Shown here: positions 2,641-15,672 of the stretch, one piece after another | How positions within the stretch are numbered: position 1 is the stretch's first letter | Layout: each line of letters opens with the position of its first letter | Source of the DNA: Kiritimatiellia bacterium | Lineage (GTDB): Bacteria > Verrucomicrobiota > Kiritimatiellia > SLAD01 | Direction of reading: 5' to 3' | DNA length: 30,447 bases | Assembly: GCA_007126995.1 (NCBI GenBank) | Contig: SLAD01000341.1 | Location: 1 to 30,447, forward strand | Notes under the pieces: model-generated | Told to the model about the DNA's origin: nothing | The model's database searches: none | Seen by the model: the letters and a program-made list of their open reading frames with translations, nothing else | Position numbers and translations under genes: made by a program

Positions 2641-4202
2641 GGCTGTTCTCCAAATGACTTCAACAACGCCCGCTCCGCCTCTTTCGTCCATACGCCGTCT
2701 TGTAAGTGTTGTGCCACGTCCGGGTAGGCTTCGGCGAGTTCTGTCAGGCGCGTTAGTTTCAAGCCGCGACAAGCCGGGTAGACCAGTATTTTGCCAGGGA
2801 TCGTCTGATGCTCCACGGCACGGATGCCGTCCACCGCACCGTCGAGACCGCTGATCGCCGCCACAGAGAGATTCGTGTCGAGCTGACGCTGAGTGACTTT
2901 CGAGAGCACGATCTTCATGTCCTCGATCGTGCTACCGCTGGTGCCAATGAAGTAGGCTTGGCGCTCGATATAGCTATCGAGATCAAGCGGATGCGTCACC
3001 TCCGCCGGGATGCCGGCGAAGATGTTGATGATGGCTTTGGGCGCCGCCTGCTCCACCGCTTGGGCCACGAGGCCGGGCACGGGCACCATCAGGGCGATGA
3101 CGTTGAACGGTCCGGGCGGAGCGTCGGTTTTCGCATTGTACCCGCGGTAGCCGACGCCATTGGCGGCGGCCAAGGGCTCGGCGAGCTTACTCAACTGGGC
3201 CAGTCGCTCGTCGCTCATGTCGCCGGCGTACACCGTGATGCCCTGCACGCCTTGGCACAGGTTGCGGATGACGTGCATCGTGCCCATCGGGCCGGCGGCG
3301 CCTACCACGTTGATGGCGTCGCCCGCGCGGATTTCGCCGTTTTCCGGGATGGCGGCATAGCCTGCATCCGGATCGGAACCGGTGGTCCCGGTGATGCGCA
3401 CGCCGCCGTAATGGATCCGGCCAACCGGCGTGACAACCGGACGCCCGAACGTCTCGCCGCGCTGCACGATATTGATGAGCGCATGCTTGGCCAGCTTCGG
3501 GAAGACCGCCTCCAGCAGATCGGCGTCAGCGCCAAGAAAGATGACATCGTCGAGCGACTCCGCCGGGATCCGGTCCAGCGCTGAGCGATCATATGCGGAT
3601 GAATCCACAGTCAGCACGCAGCCACCCTCGCGAGGCGCCCGCCGTTCGCGAACCACGTACGAGTCTTCGACGCAGGCCCACGGTTCCACCAAGGCGATGG
3701 CCGAGGCGGAAAGATCCTCGGCGGCCGGGATCAGCATCGACTCGCCGTTCGGTGAAGTGATTACGCGCTCATCCATCAGCACATACTCCTGCAGTCCGCC
3801 CTCGAAATTATATCCGAAGGCCGCGTTGGAGTTGGCTGTCCTCAACCAGCGATAATCCGTTTGCACAAGGCGCCGGTCGCCGGGTTGCACGCCGTGTACT
3901 TGATCGCCGACGGCCACCACGCGCACAACCGTTTCATGACCGGGCACCGCCGGTTTCTGGTCCGGCACATAGCTGGGGATTTCGTTTAGGGTGGCCTGAT
4001 CCAGGATCGTGACCACGGGGGATTTGCGCACATGTGCGTCAAACTGCTTCAGCAGTTTGAGGTCCGAAAAGCAGAGGCCGGTGACTTCGATCCGGGCAAG
4101 AATTTGATGCGGTCCGGGCTGCGGAATAGTCTTCTGTTCATTCAGTTCGAGCGTGTCCGGGCCGGTTAGTTGTACCGCGCGTTGGTGTGAAGGTACCGTC
4201 AT
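2637..4202 (-). CDS. Zn-dependent medium-chain dehydrogenase, L-sorbose-1-phosphate reductase (SorE)-like, with internal extra domain
   Basis: Start at ATG 4202 by ATGA overlap (521 aa). GLCFSD and PGHE catalytic-Zn ligands, FGYNFEGGLQEY, EPWACV and VGAAGPMG. No four-Cys structural-Zn lobe. Confidence 0.8.
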   Translation of the reverse strand: MTVPSHQRAVQLTGPDTLELNEQKTIPQPGPHQILARIEVTGLCFSDLKLLKQFDAHVRKSPVVTILDQATLNEIPSYVPDQKPAVPGHETVVRVVAVGDQVHGVQPGDRRLVQTDYRWLRTANSNAAFGYNFEGGLQEYVLMDERVITSPNGESMLIPAAEDLSASAIALVEPWACVEDSYVVRERRAPREGGCVLTVDSSAYDRSALDRIPAESLDDVIFLGADADLLEAVFPKLAKHALINIVQRGETFGRPVVTPVGRIHYGGVRITGTTGSDPDAGYAAIPENGEIRAGDAINVVGAAGPMGTMHVIRNLCQGVQGITVYAGDMSDERLAQLSKLAEPLAAANGVGYRGYNAKTDAPPGPFNVIALMVPVPGLVAQAVEQAAPKAIINIFAGIPAEVTHPLDLDSYIERQAYFIGTSGSTIEDMKIVLSKVTQRQLDTNLSVAAISGLDGAVDGIRAVEHQTIPGKILVYPACRGLKLTRLTELAEAYPDVAQHLQDGVWTKEAERALLKSFGEQP

Positions 4203-6433: not shown

Positions 6434-7927
6434 ATGCCGGACCGCAAGAAAAAGAATTATGTCGCCTTGGATTTGGGCGCGGGGAGTGGGCGCGCGATAC
6501 TGGGCTCGTTTGACGGAGAGCGCTTGAGTCTGGAAGAGGCGCATCGCTTTCCCAATGATCCCGTATCGTTGCCCGACGGGTTGCATTGGGATGTCTTAAG
6601 GCTGTTCTCGGACATGAAGCAGGGGCTGATCAAGGCAGCGGGCATGGCGGACGGACCGATTGACGGCATCGCCGTGGATACGTGGGGGGTTGATTACGCA
6701 TTGCTCGACGACGAAGGGCGTCTTTTGGGCAATCCGCATCATTATCGCGACGCGCGCACGGACGGCATGCTGGAGGAGGCGTTCCGGCGCATGCCGCGCG
6801 AGGAGATATTCGCGTCCACGGGGCTGCAGTTCATGCAGATCAATACCGCCTTTCAACTCTTGTCCCAAGTGTTGCAGCAGGACCCTGCGCTGAAGACGGC
6901 AGAGCGATTACTGATGACGCCCGATTTGTTTCACTATTGGCTGACGGGGCGACAGGTCGCGGAGCGCACGATTGCCAGCACGAGTCAGTGCTACAACCCC
7001 GCACAAGACGAGTGGGCGCAGGATGTGATCGAAAAGCTCGGGCTTCCTCTCAAGATTTTCCCTGAGATCGTGTCGCCGGGCACCGTATTGGGGCCGCTAC
7101 GCGCGGACGTGGTCAGCGAGACGGGGCTCGCCGATACCCCCGTGATTGCGGTGGGTTGTCACGACACCGCCAGCGCGGTGGCGGCCGTGCCGTTGGCGGG
7201 CGCGGGCGAAGCGTATTTGAGTTCCGGCACGTGGTCGCTGCTTGGCGTCGAGGTGCCCGCACCGGTGATTGATGAGAACAGTCTGAAGTACAACTTTACG
7301 AATGAGGCCGGCGTCGCCGACACGATTCGCTTGCTGAAAAACATCACTGGCTTGTGGCTGACACAAGAATTACGGCGCGTGTGGAATGCGGAAGGTGAGT
7401 CTCTCAGCTTTGAGGACTTGGCGGAACTGGCGCAATCGGCAGAGCCGTTTGCTCATTTCATTGATCCCGACGACCCCGTCTTCCTGGCGCCGGGCGACAT
7501 GGTCCCGCGCATCGCGGAGTTTTGTCGCCGAACCGGACAGCCGGAGCCGACCACGCGCGGCGCGATTTTGCGCACCGCCTACGAGAGTTTGGCTTTCAAG
7601 TATCGCTGGGTGTTGGATCTACTGGAGAAACTGACCGGCGAAACCCTGCACACGATTCACGTGGTGGGCGGAGGCAGCCGCAATGCCGCCCTGAATCCGT
7701 GGACAGCGTCCGCGACCGGACGCACGGTGCGGATTGGCCCCGGCGAAGCGACGGCAACGGGGAACGTTTTGCTCCAGATGATTGCCACGGGCCAGCTTGC
7801 GTCCGTCGAGGAAGGCCGGGAACTCGTGCGGGCCTCCTTCCCTTCCGAGACCTTTGAGCCACAGGACACGCAGGTTTGGGATGAAGCATACGGTCGATTC
7901 TGCGCCTGCGTGGGGTTGAGTCTGTGA
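6434..7927 (+). CDS. rhaB: Rhamnulokinase-family (FGGY) ketose 1-kinase; may act on L-fuculose given linked fucI
   Basis: 497 aa with DLGAGSGR, IAVDTWGVDY, YRDART, HDTASA, YLSSGTWSL, TNEAG, LKNITGLW and VVGGGSRN. Confidence 0.9.
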   Translation: MPDRKKKNYVALDLGAGSGRAILGSFDGERLSLEEAHRFPNDPVSLPDGLHWDVLRLFSDMKQGLIKAAGMADGPIDGIAVDTWGVDYALLDDEGRLLGNPHHYRDARTDGMLEEAFRRMPREEIFASTGLQFMQINTAFQLLSQVLQQDPALKTAERLLMTPDLFHYWLTGRQVAERTIASTSQCYNPAQDEWAQDVIEKLGLPLKIFPEIVSPGTVLGPLRADVVSETGLADTPVIAVGCHDTASAVAAVPLAGAGEAYLSSGTWSLLGVEVPAPVIDENSLKYNFTNEAGVADTIRLLKNITGLWLTQELRRVWNAEGESLSFEDLAELAQSAEPFAHFIDPDDPVFLAPGDMVPRIAEFCRRTGQPEPTTRGAILRTAYESLAFKYRWVLDLLEKLTGETLHTIHVVGGGSRNAALNPWTASATGRTVRIGPGEATATGNVLLQMIATGQLASVEEGRELVRASFPSETFEPQDTQVWDEAYGRFCACVGLSL

Positions 7928-8565: not shown

Positions 8566-8631
8566 CAAATCTCCCGACCAGATCATTTAACGCCCGTCGC
8601 GCCCCCTACAGGCAATTCCTGCCAATGGAAG

Positions 8632-8660
8632 TTGACAATTTCATGTCACACGTGTGACAT
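8632..8660 (+). promoter_or_regulatory. Consensus -35 TTGACA followed by perfect 18-bp palindrome ATGTCACACGTGTGACAT (copy 1, putative operator)
   Basis: TTGACA at 8632-8637. The palindrome at 8643-8660 covers the spacer and expected -10 position, 24 bp upstream of the PaaX-like ATG. Confidence 0.7.
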
Positions 8661-8684
8661 TAATTGGGTATTCACGGACCAAGC

Positions 8685-9470
8685 ATGAATGATCAAACGA
8701 ATGAATTCCTGCACTATCTTGCTTGGAACACAGACGGTTCCAATCTCGGGCCGTTTCGCTTGTTGACTGATTCATTTGAGTCATGGGCCTATCCGGGGGA
8801 CCTCATGCGACAGGCCGAGCGATTGGCGCAGCGCCAACTCATTGAGCGCGATCCCAAGCATCCCCGCAAGCCTCGCTATCGGCTTACGCACGAGGGATTG
8901 CTCCACACCCTCGGTGGACATTATCCACCCGACCGGTGGGCGCGCAAGTGGGATGGTCAATGGCGCATGGTTGTATTCGATATATCGAAGGGACACAACA
9001 CGCTGCGGCAGGCTCTCTTGCGTTACCTGCGGCAGCGTGGCTTCGGCTGTCTGCAGGACAGCGTCTGGATAACGCCCGACCCGATGGACGAAGAGCGCCG
9101 ATTGCTTCGCCGCGAAATGACGAATGTGGAGCAATTGATCCTGCTCAACACCCAGCCCTGTGCAGGCGAGACGGATCAGCAATTGGTCGCCGGCGCCTGG
9201 AAGTTTAGTCGCATCCATACCCTCTATTCGAAGTACCTGGCCATCCTGAAGCGATGTCCGCAAACGCCTCTCACTACTCGGACCGCAGCGCGACGACTCA
9301 AGGAATGGGCCACAACGGAGCGCTGGGCTTGGCTGGAAGTCATCGAACTCGACCCTCTACTACCGGCGCCCTTGCTGCCACGCGGCTATATGGGCAAACG
9401 CGTATGGAATGAGCGCGCACGCGTGCTGTCGAAAGCGGCTCGCCTATTGACTACGTTTACGCAGGCCTGA
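8685..9470 (+). CDS. PaaX-family-like protein (short winged-helix, Cas2-like central domain, PaaX C-terminal domain)
   Basis: ATG 8685 preferred (261 aa). WDGQWRMVVFDI, LRQRGFGCLQDSVWITP, VAGAWKF and DPLLPAPLLPRGY match PaaX central and C-terminal signatures. No paa genes are in the window. Confidence 0.85.
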   Translation: MNDQTNEFLHYLAWNTDGSNLGPFRLLTDSFESWAYPGDLMRQAERLAQRQLIERDPKHPRKPRYRLTHEGLLHTLGGHYPPDRWARKWDGQWRMVVFDISKGHNTLRQALLRYLRQRGFGCLQDSVWITPDPMDEERRLLRREMTNVEQLILLNTQPCAGETDQQLVAGAWKFSRIHTLYSKYLAILKRCPQTPLTTRTAARRLKEWATTERWAWLEVIELDPLLPAPLLPRGYMGKRVWNERARVLSKAARLLTTFTQA

Positions 9471-9531
9471 ATTCTGTTTCGCCCCTCGAGCAGCTCTCCC
9501 ACCGCGCATCGCGTCCGCAAACACACACTCA

Positions 9532-9567
9532 GCCAAGTAGATGTCACACGTGTGACATCTACTTGGC
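9532..9567. repeat. 36-bp perfect palindrome containing copy 2 of the 18-bp palindrome
   Basis: GCCAAGTAG-ATGTCACACGTGTGACAT-CTACTTGGC equals its own reverse complement. The core at 9541-9558 is identical to 8643-8660. Confidence 0.98.
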
Positions 9568-9631
9568 CGACCAATGACATTTGGTTTATACATCAAGCTC
9601 GATCTCCGCCCCCGTTGCTTTGTGACACATT

Positions 9632-9680
9632 ATGATTGACTTTGATCATATTTAACCTAAACTCGATCATGTTCAATCAT
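9632..9680 (+). promoter_or_regulatory. Putative promoter (TTGACT-16-TAAACT) with phased ATCAT repeats, candidate DeoR operator
   Basis: TTGACT 9636-9641 and TAAACT 9658-9663. ATCAT at 9645, 9666 and 9676, plus inverted ATGAT at 9632. SD GAGAGG precedes ATG 9693. Confidence 0.55.

Positions 9681-13221: not shown

Positions 13222-15672
<2,451 letters not shown>

Follow-up and report, generated by a model that had tools for sequence, protein, structure and literature searches.

A PaaX-fold gene bracketed by identical palindromes in a Kiritimatiellia genome: a probable self-regulated module of protein and site

The contig SLAD01000341.1 of a Kiritimatiellia bacterium (assembly GCA_007126995.1), whose 30,447 nucleotides constitute the window analyzed here, contains a single gene for a PaaX-like protein enclosed by two identical 18-bp palindromes, and the question that this locus raises is why such a unit interrupts a cluster of sugar catabolism genes. 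The preliminary description of the locus had offered three answers, namely, a cassette complete in itself, and possibly mobile, with ends bound or cut by the encoded protein, a DNA-looping repressor that insulates its own gene and also controls the operon downstream, and a duplication derived from recombination. We consider it probable that the segment from 8633 to 9567 is an autonomous, self-regulated module of protein and site, which is acquired, duplicated and lost as one unit and which resembles a REPtron devoid of a transposase.

Architecture and conservation of the bracket

The 18-mer ATGTCACACGTGTGACAT, with its 16-bp core TGTCACACGTGTGACA, occurs exactly at 8643 to 8660 (copy 1) and at 9541 to 9558 (copy 2), with no further match in the window at up to three mismatches and none in 100 shuffles. 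A single open reading frame lies between the two copies, as the preliminary description had reported, and runs on the forward strand from the ATG at 8685 to the stop at 9470, encoding 261 amino acids. That description had overlooked that copy 2 is the center of a perfect 36-bp palindrome (9532 to 9567), which is the downstream boundary of the module; the arms of copy 1 outside the 18-mer are imperfect and partly symmetric.

In the genome of the window, a metagenome-assembled genome (MAG) of 2.47 Mb in 429 contigs that is 71.5% complete, we found four exact 18-mers, none with one to three mismatches, and one copy of the gene. The same search was extended to 61 related genomes, where g1 denotes the genus of the window and g4 the genus bearing orthologs. 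A close ortholog (49 to 58% identity) was found only in three g4 genomes, and the exact 16-mer core is present in multiple copies only in these three genomes and in that of the window (4, 10, 6+1, and 4 copies), the remaining relatives having at most one or two matches with one or two mismatches, like the reversed-pattern control. The gene is bracketed by two copies in all four genomes that carry it, so that the contrary possibility raised in the preliminary description, a genome-wide operator with no link to PaaX-like genes, does not apply to this lineage across the 61 relatives. In three genomes of the window's own genus (G001 to G003, 89 to 91% complete), neither the gene nor the motif was found.

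The bracket is a property of the family as well. The family search returned more than 568 matches in one-genome-per-species contigs, almost all of them from Verrucomicrobiota MAGs, and at the loci with both flanks available (n = 75) we compared the 130 bp upstream of the gene with the 150 bp downstream of it. The flanks share a segment in 60 of the 75 Verrucomicrobiota loci and in none of 140 control pairs, and the shared segment is a palindrome of 32 to 44 bp, with centers typically ~54 bp ahead of the start codon and ~26 bp past the stop codon (33 and 80 bp, respectively, in the window). The sequence of the palindrome varies by genome around a common template (with cores TGTCCC-ACGT, TGTTGC-ATAT, TGTCGC-ATAT, TGTTCC-GTAC, and others), and another type found in the family, TTGCATATGCAA, would be non-cognate to the window protein. 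Each genome holds one to three intact, diverged paralogs, every one with its own palindrome, and paralogs at 26 to 32% identity are bracketed by unrelated perfect palindromes of 40 to 44 bp. Since the arrangement of site, gene, and site is conserved down to 26 to 38% protein identity, a chance duplicate left by recombination is refuted as an explanation of the bracket.

The genes that flank the module are not conserved, the biggest cluster comprising 4 of 230 flanking proteins, and the cassette contexts of genus g1 differ from those of genus g4. Within genus g4, the cassette is syntenic beside typA/bipA, with 56 to 71% identity versus 85 to 90% for its neighbors, and within the syntenic group formed by the loci L070, L076, L077, and L081 the cores change stepwise; it follows that the sites and the protein drift together in place. 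At one locus of this group (L077, CAWDPX010000022.1, ~3947 and ~4808), we could observe the core TGTCCCATATGGGACA upstream and the core TGTCGCATATGCGACA downstream, while its syntenic relatives have either of the two cores, the same on both sides, a condition that resembles a snapshot of site turnover. The family offers a natural library of co-evolving protein and palindrome pairs, in which a single scaffold goes with dozens of different 16-bp cores; it may be useful to study the drift of DNA-binding specificity and possibly to obtain orthogonal sets of repressors and operators. A further paralog is truncated by the start of a contig (L309, contig C194 of G010), where its C-terminal end (33 to 179) is followed on the 3' side by a quasi-palindrome (~236 to 283) with the core TTGACGATCGTCAA, different from the other palindromes.

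The encoded protein and its putative operator

The protein matches the Pfam family PaaX_M well above the gathering score (3.7e-18, 65.8 bits versus a cut-off of 24) and, weakly, PaaX_C and Cas2 (0.009), and it fails the PaaX equivalog model TIGR02277, with 56.2 bits versus the curated cut-off of 264.55. The AlphaFold (AF2) model (pLDDT 88, pTM 0.84) suggests a winged-helix-like domain (residues ~1 to 86), a Cas2-like domain with a ferredoxin fold (~87 to 168), and a helical C-terminal domain (~170 to 261). Residues 1 to 90 have no match in Pfam, and the succession of three helices and two strands predicted for them is compatible with a short winged helix. When the model was compared with known structures by Foldseek, the matches were 8A39 (2.2e-9), 3KFW (5.7e-7), and 3L09 (2e-4), after which numerous Cas2 structures matched the central domain (probability 0.97 to 0.99). 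Moreover, a profile built from 24 relatives matches E. coli PaaX (8A39, 3e-12) and Rv0674 (3KFW).

The PaaX of E. coli and Pseudomonas (8A39, 3L09; TIGR02277), a repressor responsive to phenylacetyl-CoA, has the same three-domain fold with a Cas2-like central domain and has the WDGxW and DPLLP motifs in common with the window protein. The ferredoxin-like elements are placed by the model at residues 93 to 98, 102 to 117, 121 to 124, 127 to 130, 135 to 144, and 151 to 156, and the first strand ends with an Asp, D99, which is invariant in the 24 aligned family sequences as part of a Cas2-type first strand, WRxVxFD[IV]P; the strand LQxSVWIT is also kept. This Cas2-like motif is missing from Rv0674 and from E. 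coli PaaX, which has LLLSE at the position of the Asp. Phenylacetate genes are absent from the window, as the preliminary description had stated for the cluster, and PF05138 (PaaA/PaaC) has no match in the MAG at its 71.5% completeness. Because the equivalog score falls far short, the Cas2-type Asp is kept, and no paa genes were found, the window protein is, as judged from its sequence and predicted structure, a member of the PaaX structural superfamily and not a PaaX equivalog. The source annotations name the proteins of this family PaaX, and PaaX-like genes in Verrucomicrobiota MAGs are routinely labelled phenylacetate repressors; for this clade the label is wrong because of the missing paa genes, the lack of a pathway context, and a different operator logic.

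With Cas2, the central domain has in common the beta-alpha-beta-beta-alpha-beta arrangement of the ferredoxin fold, the hhhhFD motif in beta1 with its invariant Asp, and the LQxSVW strand. However, Cas2 is a stand-alone protein of ~90 amino acids encoded with cas1 beside a CRISPR array, whereas the window protein is a 261-amino-acid fusion in which the Cas2-like domain is preceded by a winged helix and followed by a helical domain of the PaaX_C type; PF01867 (Cas1) has no match in the 71.5% complete MAG, and there is no CRISPR array. The PADLOC defense library returned a weak Cas2 match only (1e-5), the PHROG phage library returned no match for the protein, and our literature search found no paper that joins PaaX with a Cas2-like protein.

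PaaX is a dimeric autorepressor that acts on the promoter Px through a 39-bp operator, TGATTC-N27-GAATCA (PMC9493321). By analogy, it is possible to hypothesize that the window protein, with its winged helix, Cas2-like dimerization domain, and helical tail, binds the 16- to 18-bp core as a dimer, and that the arms widen the site to ~36 to 44 bp, a size akin to that of the E. coli operator. The window site is a contiguous core with arms, different from the two separated half-sites of PaaX, and the two systems are alike in having a palindromic target near 39 bp in length and a geometry suited to autorepression at the gene's own promoter. In particular, copy 1 directly follows a consensus -35 hexamer (TTGACA, 8633 to 8638, forward strand), an arrangement already noticed in the preliminary description, and sigma-70 scoring pairs this hexamer with a poor -10 (GACATT, 8657 to 8662) across a spacer of 18 nucleotides. 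As the palindrome fills these 18 nucleotides, the presumed operator is placed within the promoter spacer, and for this reason autorepression is likely: the protein would most likely repress its own gene, as PaaX does at Px. A stricter promoter scan called no promoter at this -35/-10 pair, and the promoter at this position is one that we infer. Copy 2 would close the unit just past the gene and may act as a second binding site, a roadblock, a terminator, or the anchor of a loop. Unlike the paaX gene, the window gene is bracketed on both sides, has sites dispersed in the genome, and shows no link to a pathway.

The preliminary description had also pointed to degenerate half-sites downstream of copy 2, which are weak as evidence. 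TGACAT occurs ~0.33 times per kb in the two orientations, i.e., at chance level, and TGTGACA (9621 to 9627), although rarer (~0.04 per kb), has no counterpart at the three orthologous cassettes.

As for the part of the protein that reads the site, the protein columns with the highest mutual information to core positions are residues 109, 102, and 107, which lie just after the Cas2-type first strand and outside the winged helix. Position -4 of the core is G in all 15 cases with E109, A in all 4 with Q109, and C in all 6 with K or V109, and the observed mutual information was reached in none of 500 permutations; in the winged helix, no recognition code was visible by eye. This covariation of residues and bases is suggestive of a contribution of residues 102 to 109 to specificity. 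If the Cas2-like domain does contact the center of the dyad, as these residues hint, the Cas2 fold would have a new role in reading DNA, with implications for how PaaX and Cas2 originated.

A different reading would place the function of the palindromes in the transcript, where they would form hairpins acting as terminators or stabilizers, possibly bound by the Cas2-like domain, which is also reminiscent of an RRM. The RNA hairpin of copy 2 is indeed very stable (-29.9 kcal/mol, z -7.8), many palindromes of the family are perfect over 32 to 44 bp, and many sites lie at the 3' ends of genes. However, the hairpin of copy 1 is not unusually stable (z -0.8), nor are those of the two solo copies elsewhere in this genome (z -0.8 to -2.4 across the three), no T-run follows the stem on the sense strand, and no Rfam family matched the palindromes above noise. 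In other genomes, moreover, two arm types combine freely within one genome and the stem is broken, which means that the stem need not be perfect; conservation here concerns the sequence of the 18-mer and not its pairing. As stems are broken elsewhere and only copy 2 is exceptionally stable in the window, the conserved object is the duplex sequence, and we regard an RNA-level element as the least credible of the alternatives. A test for a solo-LTR-like origin by arm chimeras, comparing CAACCT with CGAACT arms, was underpowered, as few bracket sites contain the exact 20-mer.

An intrinsic terminator was considered for the window copies and rejected, only copy 2 being very stable and no T-run being present on the sense strand; the sole terminator-like call in the two copies is on the minus strand.

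Solo palindromes, decayed cassettes, and mobility

All the sites in the g1 and g4 genomes are intergenic, and nearly all of them lie within ~120 bp of the 3' end of a gene. The two extra copies in the genome of the window are both located between convergent genes, alr and cinA in one case and a PocR-like and a larB-like gene in the other, and the genes beside other solo sites include those for glutamine synthetase III, a Na+/H+ exchanger, TrmFO/GidA, MutL, an AI-2E transporter, and tRNA-Ser, with no common functional theme. In the last of these cases (L047, contig C157 of G010), the solo palindrome (2999 to 3014) lies ~90 bp 5' of a tRNA-Ser(TGA) gene (3105 to 3192). Solo copies are thus found among unrelated housekeeping genes, which are often convergent. 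The number of extra exact copies ranges from 0 (G061, which has two degenerate ones) to at least 9 per genome, and the arms are uniform inside a genome and different between genomes. Considering one common 20-mer at sites with clean flanks, we counted 28 tandem, 13 convergent, and 8 divergent positions by crude calling of open reading frames, a distribution that is not biased toward promoters and that appears similar to that of REPs (PMC3733652).

The origin of the solo sites is illuminated by remnants of the gene. When the family profile was compared with six-frame translations around 153 sites, a near-full gene was detected at 22 of them and a fragment alone at 10, one of which (L254) corresponds to an assembly break; the remaining nine represent ~7% of the solo sites. 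In eight of the nine, the fragment is the C-terminal end of the protein, accompanied by the "downstream" palindrome at its normal spacing, and in the ninth it is the N terminus with the "upstream" palindrome. Furthermore, the MAG JANYBF01 contains, besides an intact cassette (L229), a second, partial locus (L193) that is 99 to 100% identical to it; the homology begins precisely where a palindrome arm has its outer edge, the flank beyond is unrelated, and the same contig holds two older 3' remnants. These remnants and the pair of loci indicate that cassettes existed at several loci and then decayed, and the sequence comparison thus identifies at least some of the solo palindromes as the remains of decayed cassettes. 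The proposed module would accordingly sit at unrelated places across the Verrucomicrobiota and evolve fast together with its own sites, its duplication and decay leaving gene stubs and solo palindromes; the alr/cinA and PocR-like/larB-like copies are, on this proposal, probably also sites left behind by module loss.

Among the answers of the preliminary description, the self-contained cassette is therefore the closest to the evidence, which supports it in the self-contained unit of site, gene, and site found throughout the family with no conserved neighbors, in the signs of gain and loss (the contexts that differ between g1 and g4, the same-genus genomes in which it was not found, and the decayed remnants), and in the same-genome duplicate with homology ending at the palindrome edge.

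Several observations weigh against the interpretation as an autonomous module that is gained and lost. At least 120 metagenome stretches with GC contents of 31 to 67% contain the 18-mer, mostly without the gene, and in them it forms the core of other palindromes, extended or in tandem, mostly in unrelated organisms and contexts; the link between gene and sequence is hence valid within the lineage and not universal. The three same-genus genomes without gene and motif have a rearranged island with 48 to 80% protein identity, and no cassette boundary could be aligned at the base level; the contigs of G003 end inside the region, the operon of G004 lies behind a different gene, and the relatives are too diverged for a clean empty site to be aligned. 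No joint skipping the cassette is present in the Logan contigs, although these break at the palindromes and would not reveal rare variants. Genus g4 and the L070/L076/L077/L081 group each show stable synteny of the cassette, which implies that movement, if any, is rare. Sigma-70 scoring upstream of the genes is weak and bimodal across the family, and the promoter calls are weak and inconsistent. Finally, on a tree built without residue columns 102, 107, and 109, the covariation is reduced to one to three supported independent pairs, with the same direction or ties (p >= 0.25).

The metagenome scan with the 18-mer returned no close relative of the window cassette. Among the low-GC metagenome contigs, with GC contents of 0.41 to 0.49 (L313, L319, L343, L368, L386, L416, and L427, as well as L333, L340, L346, and L379), we could notice palindromes in which the 18-mer core is enclosed by the arms ...GAATGAGTC and GACTCATTC..., sometimes in tandem with a 23-bp spacing, or by TGTGACATTATA and TATAATGTCACA; these short contigs contain no gene of the family.

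A bolder interpretation is that the module is an active element akin to a transposon or a REPtron, in which the protein cuts or recombines the palindrome ends by means of the Cas2-type Asp and so moves the cassette and, in trans, solo sites. The invariance of D99 in a beta1 motif that PaaX of E. coli and Rv0674 do not have would fit such a role, and so would the turnover of dispersed identical palindromes between species, their homogeneous arms in each genome, their REP-like orientation (PMC3733652), and the remnants and near-identical second copy bounded by a palindrome. Nevertheless, the protein has no known transposase or recombinase fold, the copy numbers are low (4 to ~10), and synteny of the cassette extends over genus-level distances. 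The Logan contigs revealed no target-site duplication, circle, or excision joint, and no such duplication was recognizable at the L193/L229 pair. The 8:1 bias toward 3' remnants could also be explained by selection against stubs that retain the promoter and the DNA-binding end. As to the Asp, even Cas2 can often do without its nuclease activity. On balance, we deem this active element unlikely.

The comparison with REPtrons and TIRtrons, in which REP or TIR repeats enclose a RAYT or TIRYT gene (PMC3733652), is nonetheless instructive. The module shares with them a single-copy gene lying between short palindromes of a dispersed family that is specific to that gene, the occurrence of several gene and repeat pairs per genome, a patchy distribution among relatives, and repeats located mainly between unidirectional and convergent genes. 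On the other hand, the window protein lacks the HUH/Y1 (IS200/IS605-like) transposase fold, its Pfam, NCBIfam, and fold matches being only to PaaX and Cas2; the copies are 4 to ~10 here versus tens to hundreds for REPs; and the module palindromes have no GTAG/CGTC tag and are perfect dyads without a loop mismatch, which suits the binding of a duplex by a dimer. We therefore present as a conjecture, doubtful in our own estimate, that the PaaX/Cas2-fold protein and its palindromes form an undescribed self-propagating element, a "REPtron without a transposase," in which the Cas2-like domain with its Asp would read the dyad center and nick or recombine the palindromes, and the cassette and solo palindromes would be copied to new intergenic sites of Verrucomicrobiota. 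Should the module spread itself, a second and mechanistically unrelated route to REP-like dispersed palindromes would exist. Two other systems offer partial parallels. An insertion sequence would show several near-identical full copies and target-site duplications, where we found one partial copy at 99 to 100% identity and no recognizable duplication. A lambda-type immunity region likewise has a repressor gene with cognate operators on both sides (here ~0.9 kb apart), but the module has no phage context, as indicated by the PHROG result, has one site per side, and has solo sites elsewhere in the chromosome.

The positions of the solo sites could also be read as the result of selection, with the protein as a global architectural regulator and the sites as docking points serving as roadblocks, insulators, terminator helpers, or a small regulon, and with the bracket insulating the gene itself. 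The closeness of g1 and g4 sites to gene 3' ends would agree with this, as would a solo site at the same, conserved intergenic position in G006 and G011, the several sites of G062 and G063 that lie between divergent genes, and the fixed distance of the downstream bracket site from the stop codon. Yet the adjoining genes have no functional theme and the position of most sites is not kept even inside one genus; for instance, the gene pair that holds a solo site in G010 has none in G006, and the DNA between the two genes has diverged too far for the edges to be defined. The repeated origin of perfect 36- to 44-bp palindromes by point mutation is unlikely, the gene stubs beside solo sites indicate a relic origin for at least some of them, and the gene and the sites are patchy among close relatives. 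Selected docking sites appear to us distinctly improbable as the general explanation.

The sugar island around the module

The module is preceded by deoR1 and the genes for rhamnulokinase and a HAD phosphatase and is followed by deoR2, E2, E3, a fused E1, and fucI. G003 retains the pair deoR1-rhaB, and both G003 and G004 retain E2-E3-E1, on separate contigs or behind other genes; as these two blocks occur separately, the module sits at their junction, and it does not belong to the sugar island.

Copy 2 lies 135 bp 5' of deoR2, and the preliminary description had conjectured that the protein, bound at both copies, would loop out its own gene and control the operon deoR2-E2-E3-E1-fucI. That proposal is only partly tenable; the autorepression geometry is present at copy 1. 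With regard to the operon, the lone half-site TGTGACA discussed above overlaps a predicted deoR2 promoter, being the -35 hexamer of one of two overlapping promoter-like sites predicted at 9622 to 9663, 3' of copy 2, but it is the same half-site that the three orthologous cassettes do not have. The deoR2-E2-E3-E1 operon of G004 (70 to 81% identity) is preceded by the same TGATTGACTT...TTCAATCATT control region as that at 9632 to 9680 of the window, with neither cassette nor palindrome, and the bracket is present whatever the neighboring genes are. For these two reasons, control of the deoR2 operon is not supported, and a local looping repressor of the sugar island is, in our opinion, very improbable.

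The region from 9632 to 9680, directly 5' of deoR2, contains an imperfect inverted repeat, ATGATTGACTTTGATCA ... TGATCATGTTCAATCAT, which from its sequence and position is likely the DeoR2 operator/promoter, independent of the palindrome.

Some minor observations concern the palindromes and the surrounding DNA. The Logan contigs end at both window palindromes, and copy 2 is recovered as a separate 36-nucleotide contig at ~2 times the local depth; palindromes of this kind break short-read assemblies, and many genes of the family are found on contigs of ~1 kb. In run X1, a second Logan contig over 7900 to 8675 has eight differences from the window, five of which (8588, 8609, 8629, 8638, and 8642) fall within 55 bp 5' of copy 1, so that the strain variation in this run clusters at the outer edge of the cassette (8588 to 8642).

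The 18-mer was also considered as a parS site, which it matches at 12 of 16 positions, and this identity was rejected because the genome has a canonical parS elsewhere. This parS-type palindrome, with the core TGTTCCACGTGGAACA, differs from the 18-mer at four symmetric positions and lies inside mnmG on contig C215 of the window's genome (L308 of G000, 6960 to 6977), adjoining mnmE and a parA-like ATPase gene; it is probably an origin-proximal partition site.

Within the sugar island, the open reading frame from 13222 to 15672 encodes 816 amino acids and fuses the alpha (E1_dh) and beta (Transket_pyr, Transketolase_C) parts of the E1 of a 2-oxoacid dehydrogenase. This fused E1 belongs to the deoR-headed E2-E3-E1 operon beside fucI and has counterparts with ~80% identity in G003 and G004.

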